IMG/VR virus record: IMGVR_UViG_3300020438_004435 | DNA: 64,000 nt | Reading direction: 5' to 3' (one strand) | Source of the DNA: a virus | In this document: positions 26,478 to 64,000 of the stretch, piece by piece | Position numbering within the stretch: position 1 is the stretch's first letter | How the letters are laid out: every line of letters begins with the position of its first letter | The notes under the pieces: model-generated | What the model was told of the DNA's origin: nothing | What the model saw: only the letters and a program-made list of their open reading frames with translations | Database searches by the model: none | Program-made: the position numbers and the translations under genes

Positions 26478-26509
26478 GTTTTAACTCCTCTTTATTCTAT
26501 TATAATATC

Positions 26510-29212
26510 TTATTCTGGAAAGGCTGCGCCTGTTGGTAAAATGTTAAAGTCTAATATGATGAACTCAGCTGCCTTAGCAGGTTGTAAGAATAATTCCCCG
26601 ATCATTTGATTTCTATCAATTACATCTGGTGTATTATTGGATTCATCCATTATTACCTTAAACGCATACAAGCCCTGTCTTTGCTGAATTGATTCCAAAT
26701 AAGGATTAACTATATTTAGGAATCTATTTCTAGTTGCTGTTGTGTTATTTTCAAATACTAAATATTTAGTTGCTGAAGCAATAAATTTCTTAACAGCAAT
26801 TAATAATCTTCTTACATTAACTCTATCCAATGCTGATGGTTTTGCTTGAAGTGTTTTTTGACCCCATATACAAACTCCTTGTCCAGGGAATGTAGCTATA
26901 GGATTTACTCTACCTTCATATAAATCATCTCTTTCATCATGTGTTAATCTACTCTTAACTTCAATTACTTCAGTTAGAGTTCCTCTATTCAATCCTGCTG
27001 GAGCAAACCATTCAAATGCTACTTTGTCATTAAATGCTATTGCACCAGGAATTACAACTGATGGTGGAACCCATACTGGTTTATTGATATCCGTATCAAG
27101 GATTTTTACCCATGGATAATAAGTTGCTGTATAATTAGAGTCGAATGCTTTTACTGTATCTGTTACAGTTGTAATGTTATCACCATATGATGCTGCATCC
27201 ATTACATAGAAAGCGTCTCCTCTATCTTCACAAGTATTTTTTGCATGTGTAGTAATGCCTGAGTGTAATCTGTGATCTGCACCAGGAGTAGCCATCATAT
27301 TGATATCATATTCATCTGGATTAGATACTGCGTTAACAGCTCTTTTATATGCTAAGGTTCCATCCTTCTGTGCTGTTGAACAATCAAAGCCAAATAAATT
27401 AGCTGCTGATATATCTCCTGCTAATCCAACGAATCTTGAAGGATTGTATCCATCAAAACCACCTTGGAATGGAATTGCAAATTTCTTAGTTGCTAAATTA
27501 ATTGTTGATCCACCTGGTGTAATATTTTCACCTCTAGGTGTTGTTCCTGCATCTAATGACGCAGAAGGGTGTTGCCAGCAATCACTTAAATTAAATGCTT
27601 TATTATTTCCAGATGTTGTTGATGCATTTGGTAAATTTGTTAAGTAATTTAAGTTATCAACATTTGTAAAATCAAATCCGTAGAATACTGCTTTATTATA
27701 AACACCATCCATAATTTGTTTTTTATTTCTTTCTTCATTTCCATTTTCAGATTCACCATATACACCTATTGTAGATGCTGATGGAACGCCTTTGAATGTA
27801 GAAGGAACTGGTTCTATTAGAGCTGCATATCCGAAAGGAACTAATTCAGCAGAGATACCTTGATCTTTTACCTCATCAGGAATTTCTAACCAAATATAAT
27901 TTGATTTATTAGCATAGTCACCATATACAGTAACCTTACCATCAGCATCAATAGATTGATATCTATCACCAACTGCTCTACCTAAGAAATTTGGATTATT
28001 AGGATCTAATGTTAAATTATTAAATTGTTCTACTATCTCAGGTGATCTGTCTGAATCATTTGATTTTTTATAAGGTGTTCTGTTAGCTAATACTGAACCA
28101 TCAACCTTAACTCTTCTCAATTGTAATGAGAAAGAACCATATTCGGATCCTGCAACAGTTCCAGCTGCTCTTACATTTAATATACAAGCTTTGATTTCAT
28201 GGTTTACTGATGTTCCATGAGCTCTAGTGTGTATCTTAAATAAATTTACCGTTTTACCACCTACCTTTTGTGATACAATAAATGGTGTTCTTGCTTCATA
28301 TCCATTCTTAGTAGCATATACTTGATTATATTTTATTTCAGTGGATGTATTACCTGCTGCCATATTACCATTAAATGATCCACCACCTACAACTACTGAA
28401 GGAACAGTTTTAGATCCTACTGTTGTATGTGCCGCATAAGATGCAGAAGCTGCATTCTTAAACCAATATTTCAAATATACAGGTTTATATCTATCCTTTG
28501 GTGTTGTTCCAAATACTTTGTCGATTAAGAATTCACTTGAAGGATTTAATGATGCTGAGTAAGCAGTGTCACCTGTTTTTGTTGTGTTTACGTGATTTTT
28601 TGATCCTGCACCAGCTACCTTAACTGCATGTCCTGTTGTAAAGTTCGTTGTTGAACCATAAGGTATTGCATTACCAGCACTATCTTGTTCTGATGGATGG
28701 CTTGAGGCACTTAAAAATAATAGGAATCCACTTGCATCACCAAAATCTTTTCTTCTAACTACATTATCTTCTGCACCATCACCATTTACTCCAGCTTTAG
28801 TATTAGATGCCGATATAGCATACCATTTTGCTGTTGGATCTACTTGACCAGGAGCTAATACAGCTACTGTTCTTCCGCCCACATCTGGAGATGCATCAAG
28901 ATTGTAACTACCAGAAACAGCTATATCAATAGCTTGTTCTAAATATCCTGATAATCCTAAAATTCTTACAATTGTTACTCGACCTGCACTCTTAAGATAC
29001 ATTTCAACCGTATAAGGAACATATGATTCTTTGGATTTTGGGCCAAAAACAGCTTCAAATTCCTTAAATGATTCGATAATGGTTGGTTCAAATGCTGGTC
29101 CCTTTACTGTAGGTCCTATAATTGCAGCACCAATTTCTCCGATTGATGCTGGTAAAAAAGATAAGTCTCTTTCGTTGGTAAATACACCAGGACTAACTAT
29201 TTTTTCTGCCAT
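26510..29212 (-). CDS. Tail sheath protein, copy 2
   Basis: Same N-terminal 22 aa as copy 1; WFAPAGLNRG, VNPIATFPG, RVNVRRLL. Confidence 0.95.
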   Translation of the reverse strand: MAEKIVSPGVFTNERDLSFLPASIGEIGAAIIGPTVKGPAFEPTIIESFKEFEAVFGPKSKESYVPYTVEMYLKSAGRVTIVRILGLSGYLEQAIDIAVSGSYNLDASPDVGGRTVAVLAPGQVDPTAKWYAISASNTKAGVNGDGAEDNVVRRKDFGDASGFLLFLSASSHPSEQDSAGNAIPYGSTTNFTTGHAVKVAGAGSKNHVNTTKTGDTAYSASLNPSSEFLIDKVFGTTPKDRYKPVYLKYWFKNAASASYAAHTTVGSKTVPSVVVGGGSFNGNMAAGNTSTEIKYNQVYATKNGYEARTPFIVSQKVGGKTVNLFKIHTRAHGTSVNHEIKACILNVRAAGTVAGSEYGSFSLQLRRVKVDGSVLANRTPYKKSNDSDRSPEIVEQFNNLTLDPNNPNFLGRAVGDRYQSIDADGKVTVYGDYANKSNYIWLEIPDEVKDQGISAELVPFGYAALIEPVPSTFKGVPSASTIGVYGESENGNEERNKKQIMDGVYNKAVFYGFDFTNVDNLNYLTNLPNASTTSGNNKAFNLSDCWQHPSASLDAGTTPRGENITPGGSTINLATKKFAIPFQGGFDGYNPSRFVGLAGDISAANLFGFDCSTAQKDGTLAYKRAVNAVSNPDEYDINMMATPGADHRLHSGITTHAKNTCEDRGDAFYVMDAASYGDNITTVTDTVKAFDSNYTATYYPWVKILDTDINKPVWVPPSVVIPGAIAFNDKVAFEWFAPAGLNRGTLTEVIEVKSRLTHDERDDLYEGRVNPIATFPGQGVCIWGQKTLQAKPSALDRVNVRRLLIAVKKFIASATKYLVFENNTTATRNRFLNIVNPYLESIQQRQGLYAFKVIMDESNNTPDVIDRNQMIGELFLQPAKAAEFIILDFNILPTGAAFPE

Positions 29213-37957: not shown

Positions 37958-38626
37958 CTAGGAATGTGGGAAGTTATCGTAAACTTCTAGTAAATCTTTT
38001 AATATAGGATGTCTATAATTTTCATGCAGAGTTACTGTATGCATTCCTTTGACCGATTTTATATTGGATAGGAATGATAGGCCGCTATCTTTATGTCTTT
38101 TTAGATCAACCTGATTTATATCACCACAGAACATCATTCTACTTCCTACTCCAACTCTTTGTAATATCATTAATGTTTGGCTATTATCTAAATTTTGACA
38201 TTCATCAACTATCACAGTTGAATTGGTAAATGTTCTACCTCTCATGTATGATACTGGAACTATCTCTATTTGTTCCATCGCCACCATAGCATCGATTCTT
38301 TCCCTACGTAATAGTTGATACATGTTTCCATATATAGGTGCTACCCATGGATCCATTTTATCCTTAATGTTTCCTGGTAAATGACCTATGTCTTCCTTTG
38401 AAATTGTAGGTCTTGTTATTATTATTTTAGTTGCCCATTTATCTAATAATGATTGTAATGCAATTTGGCAAGCTAAAAGTGTTTTTCCTGAACCTGCTTC
38501 ACCTAATAATACCGATACATCATTTTCTAATATTTGAGCTTTTGCCTTCTTTTGTTCTTCAGTAAGTGAAATTTTGAATCTATAACCTTTTTTAACATTC
38601 TTCGGTCGATCTTTCTTCATTGACAT
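37958..38626 (-). CDS. phoH: PhoH family protein
   Basis: Walker A GEAGSGKT, ITRP, YMRGRTF, VDECQN, GDINQVDL. Confidence 0.95.
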   Translation of the reverse strand: MSMKKDRPKNVKKGYRFKISLTEEQKKAKAQILENDVSVLLGEAGSGKTLLACQIALQSLLDKWATKIIITRPTISKEDIGHLPGNIKDKMDPWVAPIYGNMYQLLRRERIDAMVAMEQIEIVPVSYMRGRTFTNSTVIVDECQNLDNSQTLMILQRVGVGSRMMFCGDINQVDLKRHKDSGLSFLSNIKSVKGMHTVTLHENYRHPILKDLLEVYDNFPHS

Positions 38627-38737: not shown

Positions 38738-40522
38738 TTACAGAGTATGTAATCCTCTAACTTCAATCTTACCATAGAATTCTGGTCTAACGATCTTCTT
38801 CGCGTAACGCGTCATTACACCTTTTCTTGGTGTAAAGTTTTTCGGATCGTAAACTAGTGGAGTCATAATTAATGGAACATATGGAGCATATACAGCACCA
38901 GTTTCCAAGAATTGAGTTCCTCTAAAGCCCATCAAGATAGTATTCTGAACCATGTAAGGATTTTTGTAAACAGTAAATCTGTTATTCAATTGTCCTACTT
39001 TCTGAACACCCATTGCAAATTGAGATGAGTTACCATCTGTGTTTGCAGCATATCCAGGAATTGATTCTAATACAGTAGCTACATCTGGAGAACAAACTAA
39101 CCAGTTTGCACCACCACGCATAGTTTTTTGGTGAATCTTGTTACTAACTTTTTGGATTTTAGTTCCTAAAGTTTGGAACCAAAGACCTTGGTTGTAAGCT
39201 TCACCAGTATTAGCACCTACCCAAATGTTATTACCATCGTATTTTTCACCAATAGTAACTGACCATCTTTCAGTAGTTAATGCATTTCTTTGTAACATGT
39301 CTAAAATTTCTAAATCAATCTCTTGTGAGATGTATTCAGATAACATAGAAGTTAATTCAGCTTCAGCATCAATAGAGTGGTAAGCATTTAAGTCTTGAGC
39401 GAACTCAGGAGTCCAAACAGCTTTCAACTTTCTAGTCTTAGCTACGATTGGAATACTTCTCATTTCTAAATTGATTTCTGGAATAGCTAAATCAGTTTCA
39501 GGGTTTGCAGCTGTAGCAGCTGTAGTAGTTTCAAAGTCACCTCTAGTGATATCAGTTGGAGTTTTAATAAACTGAACCTTATATCCTTCTTGTGACGATG
39601 CACCTGAACCAGATACTACGAACTGAATAAATGTTCCATTTGCTTTTTCATTACCGCTTGAATCAGTTAATTTAGTAAATTCAGAAAATACTTTTTCAAC
39701 TATCTTAAAGTTTTTACTAGTTACTGTTGAACCTGACGTATGCGTTAATTGGAATGCTCTTACAGCTTCCTTATCTAGGAACTTATGTCCTGTTGATCCA
39801 TCTGCATCAGTAAAGATAGATGAAGTAGCGAAGTAATATCTAGCTACTGCTTTACCACCTAATGCTTCAGCAACGTTTCCACCTGTTCCACCGTGGAACT
39901 GGCCTGCATAAGATTGTGAGAATACAGTATTGAAATTGTAATCTACTCCTCTTAATGAAGCTGTTGTTACTGAAATACCTTGGTCACCAGATCCACCTGA
40001 GTGGCCTGCTGCACCATCTGTTTTAGCACCTGCAGTTTCAACATACTTGTTAGTATATCCATATCTACCTGCACCATAAAGACCTTCAGTTGGGTCTCCT
40101 GATTCATTTGTTTCACCGAATACAGAGTCTTTTTGTGATGTTCTACCTTGAGCAGTTTTGAAGTCTGCAACCGAAGTTCCATACTTATAATCAAGATAGA
40201 AGATAAGACCTGACGGTAAGTTCATAGGTTGAACTGATACGAAATCTTTGGCAGCAATTTCTGCGAAGATTCTTCTAACTAAAGGTAAAGCTACACCTGA
40301 CCACTCTTCCGAGTTTGATGCAGTACCTGTTCTAGATGATTCATCGATAAGTTGCTTAGCTTGATTCTCTAAAAGAACCGCCATACCGTGTTTTTCGTAA
40401 TCGTTATCCAACCCTTCTAAAAGACCAGTCTTCATCCATTTTCCTACAACTGCTTTTGTTTCAGTCAATTGTTGTCTATGGATGTTACTAGTATTGTCTA
40501 AAATGTTTCTAACACTTTCCAT
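38738..40522 (-). CDS. Major capsid protein (T4 gp23-like)
   Basis: VSVQPMNLPSGLIFY, KTRKLKAVWTPEFAQDLNAYH, YAPYVPL, GVMTRYA. Confidence 0.97.
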   Translation of the reverse strand: MESVRNILDNTSNIHRQQLTETKAVVGKWMKTGLLEGLDNDYEKHGMAVLLENQAKQLIDESSRTGTASNSEEWSGVALPLVRRIFAEIAAKDFVSVQPMNLPSGLIFYLDYKYGTSVADFKTAQGRTSQKDSVFGETNESGDPTEGLYGAGRYGYTNKYVETAGAKTDGAAGHSGGSGDQGISVTTASLRGVDYNFNTVFSQSYAGQFHGGTGGNVAEALGGKAVARYYFATSSIFTDADGSTGHKFLDKEAVRAFQLTHTSGSTVTSKNFKIVEKVFSEFTKLTDSSGNEKANGTFIQFVVSGSGASSQEGYKVQFIKTPTDITRGDFETTTAATAANPETDLAIPEINLEMRSIPIVAKTRKLKAVWTPEFAQDLNAYHSIDAEAELTSMLSEYISQEIDLEILDMLQRNALTTERWSVTIGEKYDGNNIWVGANTGEAYNQGLWFQTLGTKIQKVSNKIHQKTMRGGANWLVCSPDVATVLESIPGYAANTDGNSSQFAMGVQKVGQLNNRFTVYKNPYMVQNTILMGFRGTQFLETGAVYAPYVPLIMTPLVYDPKNFTPRKGVMTRYAKKIVRPEFYGKIEVRGLHTL

Positions 40523-50850: not shown

Positions 50851-50871
50851 CTCCCGGAACTAGTCCGGGAG
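50851..50871. terminator. GC-rich stem-loop, possible terminator or processing site
   Basis: CTCCCGGA-ACTAG-TCCGGGAG; no clear U-tract on the minus strand. Confidence 0.45.
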
Positions 50872-50903: not shown

Positions 50904-51485
50904 TTATGCAAATACTGATAGGTTTGCCGCTATACCTGTTCCAGATGATTCCATATGGGCATTACAACCCCATGATGTACCATTGTATGTAAATGTTATC
51001 GTTGAACCTATACCTGGTCCTCCGTTTGTTAAACCAACTACATTTAATCTGTAGTCTGCTGCTACTGATACGTCTACTGATTTAATTAGTCCAGTTGCTG
51101 ATCCTGTTGCACCAGTTGTTCTAATTACAGCTGATCCTACAGTGAAAGTTTCATCAGATGAATCACCTGCGTAAACTTGAGTTTCACCATTACCTACTGC
51201 TGCAATATAAAGCATTTTAATTGTGTCTCCAGCTTTAGAATCTGCTCTTTTAGGTAGTGTATACGTTGCTGCGTCTGTGTCAGTTACGTGATAAATAGTA
51301 TTTTTAGCTAATGTTGCTGCTGCAGATAATGTTGTTATACCTGTAAAGTGTGCTAGTGTTGCAACATATCCAACACCGTCTACTAAATCATTAAAGTGTC
51401 TTGCTTTTGCAGGAACTGAAGCTAGTCTGTTGTCTCCTGTACCTCTTGGACTCGCGTTTGCGAAATCGATTTTTGTTAATGCCAT
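50904..51485 (-). CDS. Putative virion structural protein (A/G/T-rich beta protein)
   Basis: 193 aa with AGGAG SD, followed by the stem-loop. Confidence 0.55.
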   Translation of the reverse strand: MALTKIDFANASPRGTGDNRLASVPAKARHFNDLVDGVGYVATLAHFTGITTLSAAATLAKNTIYHVTDTDAATYTLPKRADSKAGDTIKMLYIAAVGNGETQVYAGDSSDETFTVGSAVIRTTGATGSATGLIKSVDVSVAADYRLNVVGLTNGGPGIGSTITFTYNGTSWGCNAHMESSGTGIAANLSVFA

Positions 51486-52394: not shown

Positions 52395-52595
52395 TTATTC
52401 GCCTAAGTTAACGCCTTTGTTTGAAACATGTTCTCCAACATTACCTGCTGCATATATTCCAAATACCCATTTAACAAATTCTGCCCATTGAGTAAAGTCC
52501 GCTTGTTTAGTTGCTACAAATACTATTGATGCTAAAAATAGAATCATTGCGAACATTAATTTTTTACTTTGCAATTGTGTCTTAAGATTGCTCAT
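52395..52595 (-). CDS. Small two-TM protein (holin-like)
   Basis: 66 aa with two hydrophobic segments. Confidence 0.5.
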   Translation of the reverse strand: MSNLKTQLQSKKLMFAMILFLASIVFVATKQADFTQWAEFVKWVFGIYAAGNVGEHVSNKGVNLGE

Positions 52596-53211
52596 CTTCT
52601 TTCTCCGATTTTAATTCATTATACTTACTACCAAGTCTTGCCTGTTCCCTTAAATCATCCTTGAATGATTCAAATTGCGTTTGTATTTTTTCATTTATTG
52701 AATCCACAGATTCAGGTAATTTCCATTTTTCAACCTTACCATCACTATTTACATAATCCATTTGTGTAAAGGTATTTTTAATTATATCAACTTCCTGTTC
52801 TGCTTCCTTAATAAATGATTCTACATTTTCTTGTATTTTTTGTCTTTCATAATTACCGTATATATCTTCACCCTTTACATATCCTTCACACATCATTAAT
52901 GTTTCTTCCTTAACTACACAATCATGACATTTATTTTCCCTTGTAACAAATTTATGATCAAATCTGGTTAATTTCTTTTTACAATTAGGACAATCATTAG
53001 TATTAATTAATTTTCTAATTTTATCAAATCTACTTACCTTAGATTTATACCCATCCTTCTGTATCCATTTTTGACCATTTGCATCTACCCATTCATCACC
53101 TACAATTCTTTCTGATTGATCCTTTTCAAATCCAACGGTTGCCTTAGTCTGTGATCTATGAGATCCTCTTAACATCTCATTGACCGCTTTAATATTTTTT
53201 AATTTACTCAT
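52582..53211 (-). CDS. Hypothetical protein with CxxC...CxxC zinc motif
   Basis: CPNC...CHDC. Confidence 0.65.
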   Translation of the reverse strand: MSKLKNIKAVNEMLRGSHRSQTKATVGFEKDQSERIVGDEWVDANGQKWIQKDGYKSKVSRFDKIRKLINTNDCPNCKKKLTRFDHKFVTRENKCHDCVVKEETLMMCEGYVKGEDIYGNYERQKIQENVESFIKEAEQEVDIIKNTFTQMDYVNSDGKVEKWKLPESVDSINEKIQTQFESFKDDLREQARLGSKYNELKSEKEDEQS

Positions 53212-53223
53212 AACTATTTTTCC

Positions 53224-54144
53224 CTATCTCATTAATATATCATCGTACATTGATAAATCACGATCATAAACTTTATTATTTACCTTCTTAATTGGAAAGG
53301 ATCTTAAATCCAATGTATTCCCATTATCCAATTGAACATTATATCCATTCACAGCAACTACCTTTGCTTTTTCATCTCTAGCTACTTTACCAAATTTGAA
53401 AAATCTATCATAAGTAATTATATCACCACGATTTGGTTTTAACTGCTTTTGCATAAACGCCATTTGACTTTTAGATAATTTATCATTTAATAATTTTTTC
53501 TTTTCATCAACTGTTTCGTTTTTGCCTTTTTCATACTTATCTTTAATCTTACCTATTTCTTCATGGTTCTCACCCTTACCAGCTGCAGATTGTATTTTTT
53601 TCATTCCTTCCTTACCATACTTCTTAACGCCGGCTTTATATAATATACCACTTTCTTTTAATTTGCCTTCTTTAATCTGAACCCTGCCTTGGTGTGCCAA
53701 TCTCTTATCAAGTTCCGTACTAGATATCATGTCTCCCTTAACACCATCACCAAAGATAGCCATCCACTCATCCTGAAATGCCTTGGACCATGTTTCGCCC
53801 TTGGCTCCTGATTTGTGTCCTGTGAAGTGCACCATCGCACCCATTTTAGATTTCTTTGCAAAGTTTCTTGGTGGTTTTTGTATTGGATATTTTTTGAGGT
53901 TTTTCCATATAACACCTTCGGTTATAGATTTACCTTTAAGGTAATTGATTATTTCCTCTCTGACTATTCCGCGAATTTGTTCTTCTTGTTTTGACATAAG
54001 TTTCTTTATCCTAAATTTTAATGCCGGTCTTCCATTTATAGTAGGTTGACCTTTATCATCAGTACCTATATTTTTTACTTCCACTGGCTTATTCTTAAAC
54101 CTGCCTGTAAGTATAGTGTCTCCTATTTCTAAATCAATCTTCAT
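53224..54144 (-). CDS. Modular putative internal head protein
   Basis: KOW/SH3-like IGDTILTGRFKNK domain; later modules follow ITE, LKE and VDE sites. Confidence 0.6.
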   Translation of the reverse strand: MKIDLEIGDTILTGRFKNKPVEVKNIGTDDKGQPTINGRPALKFRIKKLMSKQEEQIRGIVREEIINYLKGKSITEGVIWKNLKKYPIQKPPRNFAKKSKMGAMVHFTGHKSGAKGETWSKAFQDEWMAIFGDGVKGDMISSTELDKRLAHQGRVQIKEGKLKESGILYKAGVKKYGKEGMKKIQSAAGKGENHEEIGKIKDKYEKGKNETVDEKKKLLNDKLSKSQMAFMQKQLKPNRGDIITYDRFFKFGKVARDEKAKVVAVNGYNVQLDNGNTLDLRSFPIKKVNNKVYDRDLSMYDDILMR

Positions 54145-54160
54145 ATAAATAATTAGAGCA

Positions 54161-56560
54161 TTACATATAAAATAAGCCAGTAATCTGGTTTACAGGTGCA
54201 AATGCTCCAGTAAATTTATAAGTTTTGCCCTTATATATAAATACTATACCTTCTGATGGAACCACTCTTGAAAACCCTCCAATTGCTTGTATCTTTTCCA
54301 GTTGTTGAGCTACTCTAGCTAATTTTTTAGGATCTCCTCCAGCTTTTACTCCTGCTATTGCTCTATCTACCTGCTTTCTCATATCCTGTACCGCTTTATC
54401 AGGATTTGCTGCTAGGAATCCTGATGCGTTTGTTAATATTTCAGCCCCTACCTCAAAAAATAAGGTTTCCATAGCAAACATATTTTTCTTTACCTGTGCA
54501 GCATGATTTTCTTTATCAATTGTCTTTGCCCAAGATAATGTTTTTTCGTCTTCTATATTTTTTTTATTTAATCTATATGATTTATCAAAAAATGCCCAAC
54601 GTTTAGTTAGTCCTACTAATATATCATTTGATACTGTTAAAGGGGCTTTGGTGGTAATAAAATTTTCCCACCACTTTTGATGATATAAAGATAAAGTATC
54701 ATTATCCGATAATTTGAATTCGGATTTAATTTTATTTAATTTACCAAAAAATTTACCTTTCATTTTACCATAATCCTGATGAGCTTTGACTTTAAGAATA
54801 TTTGGACCAATGATACTAAAACTTTTTTGAACATTAGCATTTACCTGTCTTATCATACCAGCTAACATTCTTGCACCATCTGATAAGGCTCCTACTGCGC
54901 TACCATTTTTATATTGTAATACATTATGGAATTGTAAATAGGGTGCATCATAATTTATAACATTTGCAGATGCTGGATATATAATTTCCATATTAACCCA
55001 ATTATTACCTTTATCAAATATTTTATCTCTTTGTTTATCATTTATAGATTTGAATGCCTTACCTAAATCCCTCATAGCATAATTAAATGCTTTTTCTATA
55101 TTTCCTCTTCCAGCAAATTTAGAAGCTATATCTCTAGCACTTACTCCGCCTCTTTTTATATCGCCTGCATTTCTTGCTGCCTTCAAAGATCCATTCCATG
55201 TAACAAATAAATTTTGACCATCGGTCTTCTCGGTAGCAATTGTCTCCCTGCTTAGATTACCCTGTAGGCCCATATCTATGATATTTTTCAAATCACCAAA
55301 TGTTAATCCCTTATCATCAAATGGATGTTGCATATGTCCATAAGCACCACCTTCCGTTAAAATTTGTTTAGCTGCCCATGATCCTAGGTTCTCGGATAAT
55401 TTTTTATATTTATTAGCTTTTACATTTTGTTTAATAATTTTTGTAATTTTAGGATCTGGTTTATTTGGTTCCTTAATTTTATCACCGGCTACATTTTTCT
55501 TACCTACCGCTGTTTCGGAATCAACCCAATTTATTAATTGCATGCCAACTGCTGTTGATATTTTTTTAATGTGTTTTTTCCACTTTCTATAAGCTGCAGT
55601 TGTAGGAATATCATATTGATTATTAGGTGACATTACTCCTTGATCTCCAGCTGGAAAGTATGATACTGCAGTAATTGGTCCATCTGGATATTTTACATCG
55701 TTAGCATGATCCTCGGGTGTAGGTATATCACTATCACCTAATATAGTATCACCATCACCTTTGGATAATAAAAATTTAACAACATAAAATCCCATTTTTT
55801 CAGCAACCTTTGTTTGAGATTTTTTATATCCTCTAATAGAAGAAAATCCATGACTTGGTCCATCATCTACCTCATTACCTTTTGAAGCTCCTGTTGTTGA
55901 TGCCTCTTTGATAATTTTTGGAAAATCATTTTCAACTATGAATTGTTCTATAATAGATTCATTTAATTTTTCTAATTTTTTAACAATCCAATCATAATTT
56001 TTTGTATGTCCAAATATACCTTTATATATTTTTTCTTTTTTCTTTTGGTCAAGATTCTTATCTCCTAACACCGCTCGTAGTGTAGTCCCTGACATTTCCC
56101 CGTAACCTGGTACGTTCATTGAAACATGAGGAGCTATGATAGTATATGCGCCATCTTTATACCCTACTTCAGCTTTACCTTTCCATGGACGAAAGAATTT
56201 ACCACCTAATCTAGATGCATCTTTTTCTCCAACCATAAATACTACGGCTGTAGTTTCTGGATCGTATTTACTTAATATTTCTTGTGCTTTATATGGGTTA
56301 CGGACTTGCTTTAATTTACTGCCCAATCCATATGCAGATATAATTTTTTTCTTTTCCGAAAATGAAAATGGAGATTTAGGAGCAGAAACTTTGTTTGATG
56401 TTCCTATATATGCATCCTTGAATTTGCCTTGAAGCCATTTGAATGCTTGTGCATGGTGAGCTCCCATTGGTTGGAATCTACCTGGATATATAGCTACTAC
56501 TTTTTTTATAGTAACATCCTCTTTAATAATTTGATTAACTATCCAATTTGCTAATTTCAC
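54161..56560 (-). CDS. Fusion of a HIGH-class nucleotidyltransferase-like domain and an RNA-ligase-like nucleotidyltransferase domain
   Basis: N-terminal IYPGRFQPMGAHH...VGEKDASR; C-terminal EKTDGQN (motif I), MEII (III), SEGIVF (IV), YKFTG (V). Confidence 0.75.
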   Translation of the reverse strand: MKLANWIVNQIIKEDVTIKKVVAIYPGRFQPMGAHHAQAFKWLQGKFKDAYIGTSNKVSAPKSPFSFSEKKKIISAYGLGSKLKQVRNPYKAQEILSKYDPETTAVVFMVGEKDASRLGGKFFRPWKGKAEVGYKDGAYTIIAPHVSMNVPGYGEMSGTTLRAVLGDKNLDQKKKEKIYKGIFGHTKNYDWIVKKLEKLNESIIEQFIVENDFPKIIKEASTTGASKGNEVDDGPSHGFSSIRGYKKSQTKVAEKMGFYVVKFLLSKGDGDTILGDSDIPTPEDHANDVKYPDGPITAVSYFPAGDQGVMSPNNQYDIPTTAAYRKWKKHIKKISTAVGMQLINWVDSETAVGKKNVAGDKIKEPNKPDPKITKIIKQNVKANKYKKLSENLGSWAAKQILTEGGAYGHMQHPFDDKGLTFGDLKNIIDMGLQGNLSRETIATEKTDGQNLFVTWNGSLKAARNAGDIKRGGVSARDIASKFAGRGNIEKAFNYAMRDLGKAFKSINDKQRDKIFDKGNNWVNMEIIYPASANVINYDAPYLQFHNVLQYKNGSAVGALSDGARMLAGMIRQVNANVQKSFSIIGPNILKVKAHQDYGKMKGKFFGKLNKIKSEFKLSDNDTLSLYHQKWWENFITTKAPLTVSNDILVGLTKRWAFFDKSYRLNKKNIEDEKTLSWAKTIDKENHAAQVKKNMFAMETLFFEVGAEILTNASGFLAANPDKAVQDMRKQVDRAIAGVKAGGDPKKLARVAQQLEKIQAIGGFSRVVPSEGIVFIYKGKTYKFTGAFAPVNQITGLFYM

Positions 56561-57261
56561 TTTGACTTCCTCAATTCTAATTCCTTTTTAATCCAAGATT
56601 TTGCAATATGATTCTGTATTGGTTTGTTTACAAATTTATTTGCTGCCTTAATAACGGAATCAGGAAAGTCCTTTTTTTCCGAATTATCTACTACTAACAT
56701 ATTACTAGCACCAAAAGCACCTTGAAATTTTCCTAAATTATTTTGACAAGCTTGCCAATACTCTTTTACTATTTTTTCAGGTAATGTTCTATCTCGCTCT
56801 TCATTTCGTTTTAATGCAACATCTAATGATGTGTTTACGAATACCATAAATGTATCATAACCTAATTTTTCTAATCTTTTTTTTCTATCTACAATTTTAT
56901 TATAATTATGGCCTGTTCCATCTATAAGTAATCCAAGCTTACCTTTTATATAATGTTCCAATTGTGATGCTACTGCTTTCTTTGCCTTTTTCCTAAGGAC
57001 TTGTGATTGAGCAAATTGGTCTGCATCCATTTTAGATAGATCTGTTCCTAAGCCTGCTCTTTTAAGTGAAGCTTCAAAGGCTGAATCTGTATTAACGCCC
57101 TTTAATCCTTTTGCAGATACAAATGGCATTCTCTCTGGTATACCAAATAATTCGGATGCGGCATATGATTTACCACTACCAGGTCCGCCACCTGTGAATA
57201 CAGCTTTGAATATACCTGGATCGTATACTCCTTCATTTAACAGGTCAACTAATTTAATCAT
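56557..57261 (-). CDS. P-loop kinase (Pnk/zeta-toxin/AAA_33-like)
   Basis: GGGPGSGKS Walker A, LLIDGTG, FVNTSLDVALKRNEERDR lid motif. Confidence 0.8.
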   Translation of the reverse strand: MIKLVDLLNEGVYDPGIFKAVFTGGGPGSGKSYAASELFGIPERMPFVSAKGLKGVNTDSAFEASLKRAGLGTDLSKMDADQFAQSQVLRKKAKKAVASQLEHYIKGKLGLLIDGTGHNYNKIVDRKKRLEKLGYDTFMVFVNTSLDVALKRNEERDRTLPEKIVKEYWQACQNNLGKFQGAFGASNMLVVDNSEKKDFPDSVIKAANKFVNKPIQNHIAKSWIKKELELRKSK

Positions 57262-57523
57262 ATTTTATCACCTTTAATATAAGGTCTCCAGAACCCTTTA
57301 TAACTCTATGCCATTCTCCCTTTTTAATGAAAATTTCATTATTTAAGGATTCAGGGATTTCATTATCAAATTGAAACTTCCAATCAGTATCATGCGTAGA
57401 TTTAATCAATCTATCTTCCCTATCCCTATGCCAAACTAATTCCATTTCATCTACATTAGATGAAAATTTTCTTATATTTGCATTGCCTTCTATATGTTCC
57501 TTATATGGATAACTCATTACCAA
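57254..57523 (-). CDS. Small cupin-fold protein
   Basis: WHRDRE...IFIKKGEWHRVIKG. Confidence 0.6.
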   Translation of the reverse strand: MVMSYPYKEHIEGNANIRKFSSNVDEMELVWHRDREDRLIKSTHDTDWKFQFDNEIPESLNNEIFIKKGEWHRVIKGSGDLILKVIKYD

Positions 57524-58551
57524 TATCTTGATGCGCCTTTACCTAATCCTAATTGTTTGGCATATCGTGGAAGATTACAAGACCAATATCCTGGAGATGT
57601 TCTATCTTTCTTTTTATCACATTGATGTCTTGATGCAAAGTTTTGTGATGCTTCCTTATTTCCAATTCTAGCTTTTAATCCGCCTGAACCAAATGCTACC
57701 TTCTTTACCTTATCACCATCCTTTACATAAACATAATAAGCCTTTGATCCACCTCTTTTAGGTTTATTTAATGCTACCTCTTTTCCTCTATGCAGGATTT
57801 CATTTTTCATAGGTAAATCTAATGGTACCTTACTACCCTCATATATTCCATATTCACCAAGACTTGTTTCCATTAAACTTTTATCCATACCATTTAATTT
57901 AATTCTATTTTCGATATGCATTTTTCTAGCTTCATTTATTAAATCTAAATGAGACGCAGTTCCATATCTAAAAACACACTCATGAATAGGTATATTATTT
58001 TCGATATGATAGTTAAGGCCTTTTGAAGGAAGAATTAAATATTCTTCATTAATTTCTTTCTGTGACATAATTTGTGCTCTTTTTTTTGCATATTTAGCTT
58101 TACGTTTTTGTAACATTTTTACCCAACCGGTATTTCCTGATTTCTCTGCAGTAGCTCTATGTTTAGTAGCTGCTTGTGTTTTTTTAGATAAAGCCTTTAA
58201 CTGATCCTTTTCAGTATCGGTTTTATTTACACCTGGAACATCTACTTCGTGTTTTGATTTGTCATCCATTTTATTCTCCGCTTTTCTTACCATACTCCAT
58301 TTAGGAATTTTTTTACCTTTATATTCACCATCCATTTTGAAATTCATAGTTCGATAATTTTTACCTTCCTTGTCCTTCAAACTTAATTGATACTTATTAA
58401 TTCCTTTTCTGGAATTTTTAACCACCTTGAGAACCTTACCTTTATCTAATTTCTTACCTCCAAGTTTGGTGCCCTTTGGGGCTCTAATAGAATCTCCTTT
58501 AAGAACCTGTCCATCATAGTTTTTAAGATCTATTTTAATTTCGTTCTTCAT
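57517..58551 (-). CDS. Modular hypothetical protein
   Basis: N-domain shared with 621..1073; C-domain LNKPKRGG...FASRHQC...GYWSC. Confidence 0.65.
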   Translation of the reverse strand: MKNEIKIDLKNYDGQVLKGDSIRAPKGTKLGGKKLDKGKVLKVVKNSRKGINKYQLSLKDKEGKNYRTMNFKMDGEYKGKKIPKWSMVRKAENKMDDKSKHEVDVPGVNKTDTEKDQLKALSKKTQAATKHRATAEKSGNTGWVKMLQKRKAKYAKKRAQIMSQKEINEEYLILPSKGLNYHIENNIPIHECVFRYGTASHLDLINEARKMHIENRIKLNGMDKSLMETSLGEYGIYEGSKVPLDLPMKNEILHRGKEVALNKPKRGGSKAYYVYVKDGDKVKKVAFGSGGLKARIGNKEASQNFASRHQCDKKKDRTSPGYWSCNLPRYAKQLGLGKGASRYW

Positions 58552-59392: not shown

Positions 59393-62300
59393 TTATGATC
59401 TCAATACGTAAGCGTTAGAAGGATTAAAATATAATGTATTATTAGTAGCATCTACTACATGACCTATAATTCTAGTATAATCGCCGGATGCTCCAATAGC
59501 TTCAGCCATGTCTCCTGGTGTTGTAGAAAGATACACCTTACCACCTCTAGTACTCAATGCAGTGGAGGATCTAATGAATCCTCTAATTAACATTCCAGAT
59601 GCATCAGAACTGTTTCCACAAGCTACAGCTAACATACCCGTAGATGCTGCTAATGTATCTGCATCTGTATGTGTCCATCCTCCAGATGAATTTAGATAAT
59701 ATAAATCTCCTGCAGTTGTATCCGTGTTACCAAAATATACAACCTCACCCTCATGTTCACCTGCTGCAGAGAAGTTTAATACATTATTTTGATATATTCT
59801 ATCTCCTGATATAGATCCTGATACTCCTCCAGTTGCAGAAATTACACCTGATGCAGAAACAAATCCAGTAATACTTGTATCACCTTCTAACTGAATATCA
59901 CTAGCAGCATCTAAAGTAATTGTTGTAGCAGCTACCTCTATATCATTTGCAGTTGGAGAATTAATAAAAGCATTAGCATCTCTAAATTGTAATTTGGTAG
60001 TAGTTCCAAAGGTTTTTACACCAGTAAATGTTTGTGCTGTAGTTAGGTGAGCTGTATCAGCATCCATATTTGCTGAAGCTAAAATACCTGTAACACCTAT
60101 AGAAGTAGCATTAGCTGCGCCAGTAAAACCTTGAGCAGCTTCTGAACCTAAAGCAACTTGTAAATTTCTTGATGTTTCTAAAGCTGTTGCAGTATTAGCA
60201 TTACCAGTTGTGTCTGCATTCTTTTGAGCGAATCTTGCACCAATGGCTTTAGAAGACATTATGTGTGCATCCGCATCTACAAATTCAGAGGCAATATCAA
60301 TGTCATCAATTGTGTGACCACCAATTGTATAATTTGCTGAGATTAAAGTGCCCGTTATTGCTGCATCACCTAATACATTTAATCTACTTGAACTTACAGT
60401 TCCATTTACGGTTAATCCAATTACATTTGGTTTTGCATTTAGAATACCAACTGATTCCATAAATACTGATTTACCTGAACCGAATCCTCCAAAACTTGAA
60501 CTAGTAAATAAAGTATAAGCTTGATTTTCAGCTGGATTTGTAGCTTCAGGTCCTTCTGCTCCTCCAAACATATTCAGGATATATGCTCCAGCAACATCTG
60601 GATGTGCTTGACCGCCTCCAGCTACACCAGTTCCATCATTAGAGATCGAAGAAAGTGTTCCTGATACTGTATGATAAACTCCCAGTAGCTTCTCATTTGA
60701 TCCATTTGTATAAGCTTTCTTTAATCTAACAGTATTTACAATACCATATAAACGTTTAGATCCACCAGTGTCATTAACCTCGGTTACCATTCTGATACCA
60801 GACATATTTCTATTACCGCCCCAACCGGTCGTTTCAGCCAATTTAATAGATGAGGTTGCATTATAAGGTACAGCTGAACCACCTAGAGATGTAATTTGTC
60901 CTTTCATTTCAAAATATGCTGCTGCATTGTCATCACCATATTGAGGATGGCCAGCACCTTGAACAAATAATCCAGTTTGTAATTCTCCATTAGAACTATT
61001 ATCATATGGAGTAAATTGTATTACTGCAGCTGGGCGTATTACTGATTCCTGACCATATCCTGTATACTCATCATCTCCATCAGCTATAGAATCAATAACC
61101 TCTAATTTTCCTGATATATCAATACCGCCAGTATTTACTTCTACAATTTCTGTGGATCCTGCATCTAATATTATTTTATCATCTGTAGTAAAGTCTATAG
61201 TGGTATCATTGGCTGCTCTACCAATTATCGTACCAGTATTATATAATGTTGTAATACCAGTTTGTGCTCCTGATGCAGCTGGAGCCGATCCCCATGATAT
61301 ATCTGTTCCATCGCTTAATAAAACTTCACCATTACTTCCAAGAGCTAATGCGGCAGGATCTCCACTTGCATCTCCATAAATTATTTTTCCTCTGGCTAAT
61401 CCTGCCATCTTTGCAAGAGTAACTTGGTTATCACCAATGTGAGCTGTATCAACTGCTCCTGCAGCTAATTCATCAGAATCAACAGCATCGTCGGCTAACA
61501 TCGCATTTGTTATACCAGCTGCTTTTACTCTGATAGCATCAGAATTTATTTCAATTGAACTATCATCAACACCTACTGCTAATACACCACTACTTACGGC
61601 TAGACCATCTCCAGCTAGAAAAGTTCCCAATCTAGAAATATCTGATCTTCTAATTGTTCCAGCATCGCTAATTATAAATTCGTCAGTAGCCGCAATTGCA
61701 GCTCCAATATCCGTAAGACCTGAAACGATATTATTATTAAGCATCGAACCTTCTACTGAAGTTGCTGCTATTGTTAAAGCGCCAGCTGATAAACTAGCAT
61801 CACCTGATAATGTAGTCCATGAAGGATCGCCGTTTGCATCTGCAACAAGTATCTTACCATTTGCTCCTGCAGCTAATGCACTAGGATCTCCACTAGCATC
61901 ACCAACAATTATTTTACCACGAGCTAGGCCTGCCATTTTAGCTAGAGTAACCGCGTTATCAGCTATCTCATCTGTATCAGCGGCATTATCAGCTAACATT
62001 GCATTTGTTATACCCGCTGCCTTAACCCTAATGGCATCAGAATTTATTTCAATTGATGAATCATCAACTCCTACCGCAAGAACTCCACTTGATACAGCTA
62101 GGCCATCTCCTGCTAGGAATGTTCCTAATCTTGATATATCAGATCTTCTAATTGTTCCAGCATCACTAATAATAAATTCATCTGTTGCAGCTATCGCGGC
62201 ACCTATATCTGTTAATCCAGATACTATATTATTATTTAACATTGATCCTTCAACTGTAGTAGCCCCTATTGTAAGTGCTCCTGCAGATAATGTTAAATCA

Positions 62301-64000
62301 CCAGATACTGTTGTCCAAGATAAATCCCCATTGGCATCAGCTACTAATATTTTTCCGTTTGCTCCTGCTGCTAATGCTGCTGGATCCCCAGAAGCATCTC
62401 CATAAATTATTTTACCACGTGCAAGACCTGCCATTTTAGCTAGAGTAACTTGATTATCGGCGATATGCGCAGTATCAACTGCCCCGGCTGCTAATTCATC
62501 GGAATCAACTGCGTCATCTGCTAACATTGCGTTTGTTATACCTGCCGCTTTGACCCTAATAGCATCTGAAGATATTTCTATAGAACTATCATCAACCCCA
62601 ACAGCTAGCACTCCACTACTCACCGCTAATCCGTCACCTGCTAGGAATGTTCCTAATCTGGAAACATCGGTTCTTCTAATTGTGCCGGCATCACTTATTA
62701 TGATTTCATCTGTAGAAGCTATTGCAGCTCCAATATCCGTAAGGCCAGATACTATATTATTATTAAGCATTGACCCTTCGATTGATGTTGCAGCAATTGT
62801 TAAAGCCCCAGCTGATAAACTAGCATCTCCAGAAAGAGTAGTCCAAGATAAATCTCCATTGGCATCAGCTACTAATATTTTTCCATTTGCCCCTGCAGCT
62901 AATGCACTAGGATCACCCGATGAGTCTCCAACTATTATTTTTCCTCTAGCTAGTCCTGCCATTTTGGCTAACGTTATTTGATTGTCGGCAATATGTGCTG
63001 TGTCTATAGAACCATCTGCATAGTGTTCAGAGTCAATTGAATCATTAGCTATTTTAGATCCATCAATTGCATCAGCGGCGATATAGTCTGCTGCTATTGC
63101 AGTTCCTTGCCAAGTTCCTGTTCCAATTGTTCCTACTGTTGTTAAACTGGTGTTCCCTGCTATTGGGGAATAGATTGCAGTTAGGTTTGAACCGGCTACA
63201 TAGATAGCTCTACCAACTGTCATATCAAGACCAATATCTGTATTATCAGATACTACTTTAGATGTATGCACTCTTGTAAATGTTCCCCTACCCATTGATG
63301 CGGTTGCTGCTGAACTACCTGTAATATTTCCTGACATACTGATAGCGCCAACAAACATATCGCCATAATTACTAGGCTTCGATCCACTACCAACTATTAA
63401 GGTATTAAATGAACCACTTGTAAATGATCCAAAACTTCCACTTACTGTTCCATGGACATTTAATCCAGTAGAATGAACTAATGCAGTCTCAACATTATCT
63501 ATATCAAATATTATTTTATCATCAGTTCCGAAATCAATAGTATTATTTTGAGAATTTCCACCAATGATCAAACTATTGTGTTTAATAGAGGTTATTCCTG
63601 TTTGTGCTCCAGATGCTGCTGGTGCTGATCCCCATGATATGTCTGTTCCATCACTTAATAAAACTGTACCATTACTTCCAAGAGCTAATGCGGCAGGATC
63701 TCCACTTGCATCTCCATAAATTATTTTTCCTCTGGCTAATCCAGCCATTTTAGCAAGAGTAACTTTATTTGCACCTATTGTAGTTGCACCATCACCAGTA
63801 ATTGTTACGTCTCCACTCATTGCTGTAGAGGTTGCTTCATTGCCAGCATTTCCTATTAATATATTACCATCATTAAGGGCTGCTAATTTTGTAAATGCTA
63901 TAGCGGCTGAAGCTGCTACTGAGGCATTGACAACTGCATTTGAAGCTAATTTATCTGCGTCAACCGCATCGTCGGCTATCATTGCCGTAGCAATTCCTCC
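59393..64000 (-). CDS. Long fibre protein with tandem modules, probably 5'-partial
   Basis: Frame is open to the window end; five TLAKMAGLARGKII motifs; A/G/S/T/D-rich. Confidence 0.85.
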   Translation of the reverse strand, partial: GGIATAMIADDAVDADKLASNAVVNASVAASAAIAFTKLAALNDGNILIGNAGNEATSTAMSGDVTITGDGATTIGANKVTLAKMAGLARGKIIYGDASGDPAALALGSNGTVLLSDGTDISWGSAPAASGAQTGITSIKHNSLIIGGNSQNNTIDFGTDDKIIFDIDNVETALVHSTGLNVHGTVSGSFGSFTSGSFNTLIVGSGSKPSNYGDMFVGAISMSGNITGSSAATASMGRGTFTRVHTSKVVSDNTDIGLDMTVGRAIYVAGSNLTAIYSPIAGNTSLTTVGTIGTGTWQGTAIAADYIAADAIDGSKIANDSIDSEHYADGSIDTAHIADNQITLAKMAGLARGKIIVGDSSGDPSALAAGANGKILVADANGDLSWTTLSGDASLSAGALTIAATSIEGSMLNNNIVSGLTDIGAAIASTDEIIISDAGTIRRTDVSRLGTFLAGDGLAVSSGVLAVGVDDSSIEISSDAIRVKAAGITNAMLADDAVDSDELAAGAVDTAHIADNQVTLAKMAGLARGKIIYGDASGDPAALAAGANGKILVADANGDLSWTTVSGDLTLSAGALTIGATTVEGSMLNNNIVSGLTDIGAAIAATDEFIISDAGTIRRSDISRLGTFLAGDGLAVSSGVLAVGVDDSSIEINSDAIRVKAAGITNAMLADNAADTDEIADNAVTLAKMAGLARGKIIVGDASGDPSALAAGANGKILVADANGDPSWTTLSGDASLSAGALTIAATSVEGSMLNNNIVSGLTDIGAAIAATDEFIISDAGTIRRSDISRLGTFLAGDGLAVSSGVLAVGVDDSSIEINSDAIRVKAAGITNAMLADDAVDSDELAAGAVDTAHIGDNQVTLAKMAGLARGKIIYGDASGDPAALALGSNGEVLLSDGTDISWGSAPAASGAQTGITTLYNTGTIIGRAANDTTIDFTTDDKIILDAGSTEIVEVNTGGIDISGKLEVIDSIADGDDEYTGYGQESVIRPAAVIQFTPYDNSSNGELQTGLFVQGAGHPQYGDDNAAAYFEMKGQITSLGGSAVPYNATSSIKLAETTGWGGNRNMSGIRMVTEVNDTGGSKRLYGIVNTVRLKKAYTNGSNEKLLGVYHTVSGTLSSISNDGTGVAGGGQAHPDVAGAYILNMFGGAEGPEATNPAENQAYTLFTSSSFGGFGSGKSVFMESVGILNAKPNVIGLTVNGTVSSSRLNVLGDAAITGTLISANYTIGGHTIDDIDIASEFVDADAHIMSSKAIGARFAQKNADTTGNANTATALETSRNLQVALGSEAAQGFTGAANATSIGVTGILASANMDADTAHLTTAQTFTGVKTFGTTTKLQFRDANAFINSPTANDIEVAATTITLDAASDIQLEGDTSITGFVSASGVISATGGVSGSISGDRIYQNNVLNFSAAGEHEGEVVYFGNTDTTAGDLYYLNSSGGWTHTDADTLAASTGMLAVACGNSSDASGMLIRGFIRSSTALSTRGGKVYLSTTPGDMAEAIGASGDYTRIIGHVVDATNNTLYFNPSNAYVLRS
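61328..63742. repeat. Fibre repeat region: three tandem 498-528 nt modules bracketed by a 75-nt exact direct repeat
   Basis: 61328..61402 is identical to 63668..63742; KMAGLARG motifs near 62960, 62432, 61934 and 61406. Confidence 0.9.

Follow-up and report, generated by a model that had tools for sequence, protein, structure and literature searches.

Bacteriophage T4 offers two of the closest described parallels to the locus analysed here. In its PseT (Pnkp) and RnlA proteins a P-loop 5'-kinase works alongside a covalent nucleotidyltransferase that has an RNA-ligase fold and a KxDG motif, and pseT and rnlA are expressed early or mid-infection. Its internal proteins and the enzyme Alt carry a capsid-targeting sequence, are cleaved by the prohead protease gp21 after L/I-x-E, the motif which that protease prefers, and are injected with the DNA. 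The T4 capsid-targeting sequence is about 10 aa long (PMC9958956), and S77-family proteases cleave after x-X-Glu, or AXE in the case of SPN3US (PMC10052503). Here we describe a three-gene cassette at positions 54161-57523 of a 64,000-nt stretch of viral DNA (IMG/VR record IMGVR_UViG_3300020438_004435; this full stretch is hereafter the window), in which a P-loop kinase gene adjoins a gene for a 799-aa fusion of a transferase and an RNA-ligase-like domain. Judging from sequences and predicted structures, the cassette is most likely an RNA end-repair set made with the head proteins and possibly delivered in the capsid, in which the kinase and a domain of a new RNA-ligase-like clade are linked to an NMNAT-like transferase. 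The full reading, in which this repair kit is made with the head proteins, loaded into the capsid, trimmed and injected, we hold at a probability of roughly 40%.

As the original prediction had it, three overlapping genes are present, all on the minus strand. The fusion gene (54161..56560), whose product is 100% identical to protein cluster P0004, opens with a GTG codon, preceded by the Shine-Dalgarno sequence GAGGAAG, in a 4-nt overlap (GTGA) with the kinase stop codon; the kinase gene (56557..57261, 234 aa) follows AGGTGA and overlaps by 8 nt a small gene (57254..57517) that encodes 87 aa from its ATG or 89 aa from a TTG at 57523. The ATG at 57517, in a TAATG overlap with the preceding stop codon, is probably the true start. 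The three open reading frames (ORFs) are translationally coupled. From the fibre gene to the terminase all genes are co-directional, with intergenic gaps of 0-16 nt near the cassette, and a scan of 48-64 kb revealed nothing resembling a minus-strand terminator; the cassette thus appears to belong to the late structural transcription unit. A sigma-70 promoter scan of the region gave results at chance level.

The C-terminal part of the fusion (residues 404-799; 54164..55351, minus strand) appears to be an RNA-ligase-like covalent nucleotidyltransferase domain. The ligase-superfamily motifs I, III, IV and V that had been read from the sequence were all recovered in order, together with Ia and IIIa: K445-T-D-G (I), R463 (Ia), E525 (III), F544/H545 (IIIa), E770-G-I-V-F (IV) and K777-G-K779...K782 (V), the last two being assigned by order and conservation rather than by residue-level structural alignment. 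Across 45 diverse sequences K445-x-D-G, R463, E525, E770-G and G785 show little or no variation, and the K, D and G of motif I show none. AlphaFold2 (AF2) modelled the domain with a predicted local distance difference test score (pLDDT) of 90 and a predicted template modelling score (pTM) of 0.87. A VIA search, independent of Foldseek, matched this domain to NgrRnl (Z 9.6, 187 aa), Trl1-LIG (8.6 and 8.2), REL1 (8.1), Rnl2 (8.0) and Rnl1 (7.9), with DNA ligases under the RNA ligases at Z 5-7; its alignments covered about 190 residues across model residues 10-400 and drew on six RNA-ligase clades. The Foldseek comparison with the PDB was less decisive, since it returned nothing below E 0.01, but its top rows were nearly all RNA ligases, among them T4 Rnl1, the archaeal dimeric RNA ligases 2vug and 8uce, Trl1, Rnl2 and REL1, and RNA ligases rank higher than DNA ligases in both fold searches.

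At the sequence level, hhalign set EKTDGQN of the domain on EKIHGTN (K35) of T4 Rnl2, with motifs I and Ia aligned, and, against T4 Rnl1, set KTDG on KEDG (K99), NMEIIYP on NFEFVAP and E525 on E159, in both cases at low probability. In phmmer and profile searches of PDB sequences with the C-terminal domain no ligase was matched, the N-terminal domain alone finding matches, and in Pfam the window fusion had no match to RNA_ligase (PF09414), whose gathering threshold it did not reach. The AF2 model shows in its secondary structure a helical insert of about 170 aa (residues 595-765; 54266..54778, minus strand) between motifs IIIa and IV, and contains no OB domain, the protein ending 14 residues past G785. 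As modelled, the fold looks closest to that of RNA ligases, and the domain would constitute a separate clade of the covalent-nucleotidyltransferase (ligase) superfamily, outside Pfam recognition. It is not the replicative ligase, because an ordinary DNA ligase, complete with OB domain, is encoded separately in the window at 4115-5407.

Calling the 234-aa protein a Pnk-like P-loop kinase proved a fair description. It matched Pfam Zeta_toxin (PF06414) at 3.8e-10 and 40 bits, above the gathering cut-off of 22.3, and scored under the Pfam cut-offs for AAA_33, AAA_17 and dNK; AAA_18 was also among the Pfam matches, and AAA_28/RNK was not. Among PHROG families it matched 12810 (8.5e-44) and phrog_505, a 'polynucleotide kinase' (6e-7), while NCBIfam and PDB searches returned seryl-tRNA(Sec) kinase (PSTK) alone, its best solved relative. 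A profile of 21 kinase sequences aligned with the kinase domain of T4 PseT with a probability of 76% (hhalign, E 2e-5), placing GPGSGKS on GCPGSGKS, D59 on D35, and R152/R156 of the Arg lid on R122/R126, so that the P-loop, the catalytic Asp following strand 2 and the Arg lid of T4 Pnkp-type kinases are all present; a Phe occupies the position equivalent to T4 PseT R38. The alignment covers PseT residues 3-148 of 301, and the 234-aa protein contains no fused HAD 3'-phosphatase domain. Its sequence places the protein in the Zeta/Pnk/PSTK group of P-loop kinases.

Fold and profile tests agreed on the proposed three-part layout of the fusion, with a transferase, a middle module and the ligase-superfamily domain. 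The first of these (residues 15-219; 55904..56518, minus strand) appears to be a HIGH-class (HUP) nucleotidyltransferase domain bearing GRFQPMGAHH (residues 27-36) and SGTTLR. The HIGH-class character predicted for it held at the level of the fold: AF2 modelled residues 20-210 with a pLDDT of about 95, and Foldseek matched the NadM NMNAT 2qjo at 8.5e-6 and the PPAT 3k9w at 9e-6, with a probability of 1.0. The atypical motif noted earlier is likewise real, GAHH replacing HxGH such that the Arg and the last His are kept and Gly takes the place of the first His; SGTTLR fits the second motif of the NMNAT type. A family profile found NMNAT 2qjt in the PDB at 1.5e-4, the archaeal NMNAT MJ0541 via GRFQPF-HxGH, and PPAT over 170 residues. 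For Pfam CTP_transf_like (PF01467) the window fusion scored 15.5, under the cut-off of 21, and, with a listing threshold of E<=5, 23 of 45 relatives matched, with a best value of 2.5e-8. Against NCBIfam NMNAT (PRK01153) the domain reached 15.6 bits, short of the family cut-off of 127, and it is therefore assigned at superfamily level only. The middle module (residues 220-403; 55352..55903, minus strand) is variable, retains a conserved VDDGP, and was modelled mostly at low confidence (pLDDT about 40-60); it is flanked by IIKE219 and ILTE403, has three [LI]xE sites at its C-terminal end, and is absent from a 639-aa homologue in Microcystis phage Mel-JY01 (WWT39297).

Two roles had been put forward for this set of enzymes, tRNA repair of the T4 Pnk/Rnl kind and NAD salvage of the NadR type, and the partners fused to the fusion's relatives bear on both. 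No partner accompanies the ligase domain more constantly than the transferase, and in 6 of 150 representatives the kinase is in the same polypeptide as transferase and ligase, in two domain orders. One relative (P0135) joins transferase, HD phosphohydrolase and ligase. Another, a metagenomic protein of 1930 aa (P0213), strings together transferase, DUF5661, AAA_33/KTI12 kinase, HD, the head domain of PolyA_pol (CCA-adding, 2.8e-30), an RNA-binding domain and ligase, and by its sequence would amount to a complete tRNA repair toolkit in a single phage protein. Enzymes of these kinds, from kinase and phosphohydrolase to CCA-adding enzyme and RNA ligase, form a tRNA end-healing and sealing set, so the Pnk/Rnl role, independently supported in this way, is favoured over NadR.

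The NadR-type role itself was not supported, with the kinase lacking an AAA_28/RNK match and the transferase so far under the NMNAT cut-off. A broader version would have the kinase phosphorylate a nucleoside or precursor and the NMNAT-like domain make NAD+ or a related dinucleotide, either to counter NAD+-depleting defences or to feed NAD+-using enzymes, with the ligase-like domain using or transferring the nucleotide. The N-terminal domain does find its best matches in NadM and archaeal NMNAT, and its GRFQP and SGTxxR motifs are of the NMNAT type, but PPAT matches it as well as NMNAT does and the first His of HxGH is lost. A P-loop kinase beside a HIGH transferase is a common two-step pattern, and phage NMNATs occur fused to a Nudix domain or a kinase (PMC7824862); the kinase here, however, matches Pnk, Zeta and PSTK, not RNK or dephospho-CoA kinase. 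An ADP-ribosyltransferase (ART) domain in one fusion relative (P0207) would consume NAD+, a cyanophage virion protein has been named NMNAT-like (PMC10665884), and 2 of 45 relatives weakly match the adenylation domain of NAD-dependent ligases (0.021). Against this, no Nampt or other source of NMN was seen within the window, and the domains fused in relatives, namely HD, the Pnk-like kinase and the CCA-adding enzyme, indicate RNA ends. We consider cofactor supply quite unlikely, and RNA end repair remains our preferred account of the enzymes.

The case for packaging starts from the N-termini. The fusion begins with a 14-residue leader, (M)KLANWIVNQIIKE (56519..56560, minus strand), a candidate capsid-targeting sequence or propeptide that ends in I-K-E and is followed by D. 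The candidate protease sites IIKE14, IIKE219 and ILTE403 do lie at domain borders, as first proposed; with gaps excluded, 45 of 47 aligned relatives keep E14 and 48 of 49 keep E219, and these are the best-conserved residues of their linkers, the residue at position 13 or P2 being variable. Ahead of the ligase domain, a hydrophobic-x-E directly precedes GGAxGH in 102 of 130 representatives. The kinase has a 10-residue leader, MIKLVDLLNE, before GVYDPG, in which E10 is invariant in an alignment of 21 sequences (A3) and the residue before it is variable. All 56 distinct N-termini listed from 121 kinase relatives have x-E immediately ahead of GVYD/GIYD or of an inserted SH3-like module (P0292), and kinase domains inside fusions are still preceded by x-E, followed by GV. 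In the T4 record the leaders are MKTYQEFIAE, followed by A, in IPII and IPIII, and MELITELFDE, followed by D, in Alt; to judge by these, both cassette leaders resemble the T4 capsid-targeting sequence. The window also encodes, within the same module, a T4 gp21-type prohead protease (Peptidase_S77, PF03420, 1.8e-33; 43036..43662, minus strand), so that a short leader ending in L/I-x-E and a gp21-family protease in the genome, the two marks of T4-type internal proteins, are found together.

The distribution of potential cleavage sites may point the same way. All eight [LI]xE sites of the window fusion fall at residues 12-14, 199-219 and 362-403, and none in the two folded domains (P ~4e-5). Family-wide, the ratio of observed to expected [LI]xE is 0.37 in the ligase domain, 0.43 in the transferase and 0.23 in the kinase, compared with 1.98 between domains; among the comparators it is 1.05 in TerL, 0.92 in the portal and 2.17 in the protease itself. 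The ratios for [LI]xD and [LI]xQ are near 1 in the ligase and transferase domains and scattered in the kinase (1.39 and 0.63).

Cyanophage virions are known to contain distant relatives of the transferase. Liquid chromatography-mass spectrometry of T4-like cyanophage virions detected a 'cytidylyltransferase' in S-CREM2 (gp154, PMC10665884) and in S-SZBM1 (S-SZBM1_140, PMC9146016), and PMC10665884 also cites NMNAT-like virion proteins of the cyanomyoviruses S-CBWM1 and S-SCSM1. The cyanophage family aligns with the N-terminal domain profile of the fusion at E 3e-4 over 149 columns, and S-PM2p142 at 2.4e-4, with a probability of about 40% (hhalign). Of the three members read, two begin with similar leaders, MKNFSSFLTE in S-CREM2 gp154 and MKSFSQFLTE in P-SSM2_194. 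Weighing leaders, sites and these analogues together, we give capsid packaging of the cassette proteins roughly even odds; internal cleavage of the fusion is plausible, at odds somewhat under those for packaging.

The fusion family appears essentially restricted to phages. It comprises 1796 close relatives and 3302 representatives at 50% identity, is encoded on at least 551 IMG/VR stretches, and includes many members of 1,000-2,000 aa as well as some stand-alone C-terminal domains of about 420 aa. A blastn search of 50,697 phage records with the 3.4-kb region found no match, and tblastn of the fusion found three phage records only. Among 185,579 species genomes the family occurs on 12 contigs of metagenome-assembled genomes only; seven of these contigs reach at least 3 kb past the match, and the presence of TerL on six, with the portal also on five of those and S77 also on three, identifies them as phage DNA. 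Relatives are labelled only 'cytidyltransferase-like' or 'hypothetical' in BFVD and GenBank, and our literature search found no paper on the ligase-like domain or on Mel-JY01. A BFVD match named 'cytidyltransferase-like' in S-PM2 was not confirmed, S-PM2p143 showing no match to the C-terminal domain profile (E 0.34). The family is among the larger unannotated enzyme families of aquatic phages.

Gene order was compared in 80 IMG/VR loci found via the C-terminal domain, and in 30 loci found via the terminase (at least 59% identity and at least 7 kb of upstream sequence). In 77 of the 80, TerL lies downstream of the fusion gene on the same strand, and S77 was detected in 27; in the window, too, terminase and portal (45067..48535) are its conserved downstream neighbours. 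This fixed place beside the terminase would be accounted for if the kinase and ligase-like domain processed the phage's own DNA at or after packaging, by sealing nicks or by modifying or capping genome ends (5'-adenylylation, for example) against exonucleases. The near-universal position directly upstream of TerL suits such a role, and DNA ligases are also among the fold matches; RNA ligases nevertheless outrank them in both searches, OB and DNA-binding domains are both lacking in the C-terminal domain, the window encodes a dedicated DNA ligase elsewhere, the CCA-adding domain of P0213 indicates tRNA, and packaging can evidently proceed without the fusion, which 11 of the 30 close terminase relatives lack. 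We regard DNA processing as very unlikely and return to the loaded RNA end-repair kit.

Several observations weigh against that reading. The kinase is upstream of or adjacent to the ligase gene in 22 of the 80 loci, and of the 30 found via the terminase 19 have the fusion and 2 the kinase; the transferase-ligase pair is often present in the head module but can be dispensed with, and the kinase is an optional partner. The two genes upstream of the Mel-JY01 fusion homologue are not kinases. The small gene is present in 2 of the 80 loci, there between TerL and portal, and is not a conserved cassette partner. The sequence-level link to T4 RNA ligases is weak, with hhalign probabilities of 8% and below 1%, and PF09414 is weakly matched by 7 of 45 relatives, at best 0.0011. 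No 3'-end-healing domain, either phosphatase or 2H, was seen in the window, HD occurring only in some relatives, and we know of no precedent for a HIGH transferase in RNA repair. As to cleavage, M, C or A replaces the Glu ahead of GGAxGH in 28 of 130 representatives. A different protease in the M/C-type phages was considered and rejected, as the sole context available, that of P0131 (LLLM ahead of the ligase domain), also has an S77 gene beside it. T4 Alt, a known packaged protein, has 8 [LI]xE sites where 7.8 are expected, so that depletion is an unvalidated signature and suggestive only; three cyanophage transferases are likewise not depleted. The family sequences are, moreover, related to one another, and their conservation and site counts are thus not independent.

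Some of these points also fit an alternative in which the same enzymes are made late and act in the cytoplasm or in morphogenesis rather than as cargo, guarding tRNA and RNA while virion proteins are heavily translated late in infection or having a second role in assembly like that of T4 RnlA, with hydrophobic-x-Glu being structural. In the T4 record RnlA carries the annotation 'RNA ligase 1 and tail fiber attachment catalyst', and the fusion gene is placed between the fibre gene and the head genes; replacement of the pre-ligase Glu within a block otherwise kept as LL-x-[E/M/C]-GG, and a packaged protein, Alt, that does not avoid [LI]xE, would be expected under it as well. It accounts less readily for leaders that closely resemble the T4 capsid-targeting sequence, for a Glu nearly invariant within otherwise variable linkers, for [LI]xE being two-fold enriched between domains and depleted inside them, unlike in TerL and portal, and for the virion location of the distant cyanophage transferases (PMC10665884, PMC9146016). 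On balance we think a non-cargo role unlikely, though less so than the other two alternatives.

From the genes, folds, motifs, fusions, conserved position and conserved junction Glu residues described above, we infer activities, packaging, cleavage and injection as follows. Phosphorylation of 5'-OH ends would fall to the Pnk-like kinase. The C-terminal domain would act as a divergent ATP-dependent RNA ligase, in which Lys445 is adenylylated, the AMP is handed to the 5'-phosphate end and the end is sealed, with the helical insert perhaps standing in for the usual appended specificity domain. The NMNAT/PPAT-like domain may carry out nucleotidyl transfer, for which an NMN-type mononucleotide and an RNA end are candidate substrates. 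Both proteins would be loaded into the prohead and trimmed by the S77 protease, the fusion perhaps being cut apart at E219 and E403, and injection with the DNA would then allow broken tRNA or RNA to be mended ahead of any phage gene expression.

The window covers the structural and packaging genes of a myovirus of low GC content (~33%), which lie on the minus strand and include head genes of T4 type. Two sheath genes (22629-29212), a PhoH-like ATPase (37958-38626, 2.2e-57) immediately downstream of the major head protein (38738-40522) and within the structural module, a T4-type portal (45067-46926), a large terminase (46952-48535) and a fibre-like gene of at least 1529 aa (59393-63982) were identified. 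The sole strong hairpin within 48-64 kb is a GC-rich 8-bp inverted repeat, CTCCCGGA...TCCGGGAG, at 50851-50871, in the 81-nt gap between the ORFs at 50904-51485 and 50403-50822, which may be a processing site or a terminator that lacks a T-run. The small gene at the head of the cassette exists as predicted, but its identity as a cupin is a weak lead: the protein had no Pfam, PHROG or NCBIfam match, and in its nearest named Atlas cluster (score 0.94) Cupin_2 occurs in 16% of members. In two related loci (L061, L066) this 87-aa gene is paired with the 344-aa gene found here at 57517-58551 (minus strand), and the pair lies between terminase and portal, not upstream of the kinase, which suggests a small mobile two-gene unit of the head module.

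Neighbouring genes add further observations. Just downstream of the fusion, a 306-aa gene (53224-54144, minus strand) encodes an N-terminal SH3/KOW-like module, IGDTILTGRFKNKPVEVK, which was detected by tblastn in 24 of the 80 related loci and in other phages is fused behind a leader and ahead of either the kinase, in P0292, or the ligase-like domain, in P0224, P0187 and P0271. The commonest downstream neighbour of the fusion gene, in 47 of the 80 loci, is the 209-aa ORF at 52582-53211 (minus strand), in which [LI]xE is mildly enriched (1.45). A 139-aa ORF (50403-50822, minus strand) with no family match has the leader MARLKDLLNE, near-identical to that of the kinase, and a second hydrophobic-x-E ending at residue 23; its sequence makes it a further candidate for capsid targeting. 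Between portal and protease, a 277-aa ORF (44163-44996, minus strand) has six hydrophobic-hydrophobic-x-E motifs where 1.3 are expected and a leader ending in ILFE at residue 14, and is probably a prohead core or scaffold protein degraded by the protease. In S77 homologues from related loci (L006-L177) [LI]xE is 2.2-fold over-represented (352 observed, 162 expected), consistent with self-cleavage; T4 gp21 cleaves itself.

The widest form of the proposal is that a very common group of marine and freshwater phages with T4-like heads preloads its capsids with an RNA-repair machine, a 5'-kinase and a transferase-ligase polyprotein brought in by their capsid-targeting leaders, which the protease splits and which, once injected, undoes host cleavage of tRNA or RNA before expression begins; this we consider doubtful. 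If it were true, RNA repair would become a virion-delivered counter-defence active before transcription, RNA ligases would gain a new clade, the NMNAT-like domain would add a step new to RNA repair, such as a local supply of NAD+ or nucleotide or the nucleotidylation of RNA ends, and a function would be on offer for the 'cytidylyltransferase' repeatedly detected in cyanophage virions.

Among known systems, NadR and NadM share with the cassette an NMNAT-type fold, the GRFQP motif and, in NadR, a neighbouring P-loop kinase, but the N-terminal domain fails the NMNAT cut-off, has lost the first His of HxGH, and adjoins a kinase of Pnk/Zeta rather than RNK type. Fungal and plant Trl1 (ligase-kinase-CPD) combines in one system a P-loop polynucleotide kinase and a ligase adenylyltransferase domain that is among the top fold matches; unlike Trl1, the cassette has no 2H cyclic phosphodiesterase, follows another domain order and adds a HIGH transferase. 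The polyvalent proteins (PMC5512222) likewise carry many catalytic domains on one phage polypeptide and are predicted to be delivered with DNA, and relatives of the fusion include ART, HD, kinase and CCA-adding domains. Iyer et al. (2017) noted that the 2H domains of polyvalent proteins were never accompanied by ATP-grasp RNA ligases; in a term search, no mention of zeta-toxin kinase, polynucleotide kinase or cytidylyltransferase was found in that paper, which does not describe the present architecture, and MuF or portal fusions were not seen here. The cyanophage virion transferases (T4-GC190; S-CREM2 gp154, S-SZBM1_140, S-PM2p142, P-SSM2_194) share the HIGH motifs GRFxP, K(S/N)P(F/L) and (M/L)S(G/A)(T/S)xxR with the fusion, to which they are distant, whereas they keep a canonical or near-canonical HxGH, have no ligase-like domain and occupy a different genome position.

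T4 itself provides two of the closest comparisons. With IPI-III and Alt the cassette shares leaders of 10-14 residues ending in hydrophobic-x-Glu and a gp21-family S77 protease in the genome; Alt, moreover, is an enzyme carried as cargo, as proposed for the cassette, one of whose relatives (P0207) bears an ART domain. The putative cargo here differs in that it would consist of RNA-repair or nucleotidyl-transfer enzymes, with possible internal cleavage of a polyprotein. With PseT and RnlA the cassette shares a kinase having the same P-loop, catalytic Asp and Arg lid together with a KxDG nucleotidyltransferase of apparent RNA-ligase fold, but its kinase is without the HAD 3'-phosphatase domain, and its ligase domain, by contrast with RnlA, would represent a separate clade that Pfam does not recognise, carries helices inserted between motifs IIIa and IV, and shares its polypeptide with a HIGH transferase. 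Finally, pseT and rnlA are found in the T4 record outside the head-gene cluster; the cassette belongs to a late head module, and the leaders of its proteins are propeptide-like.

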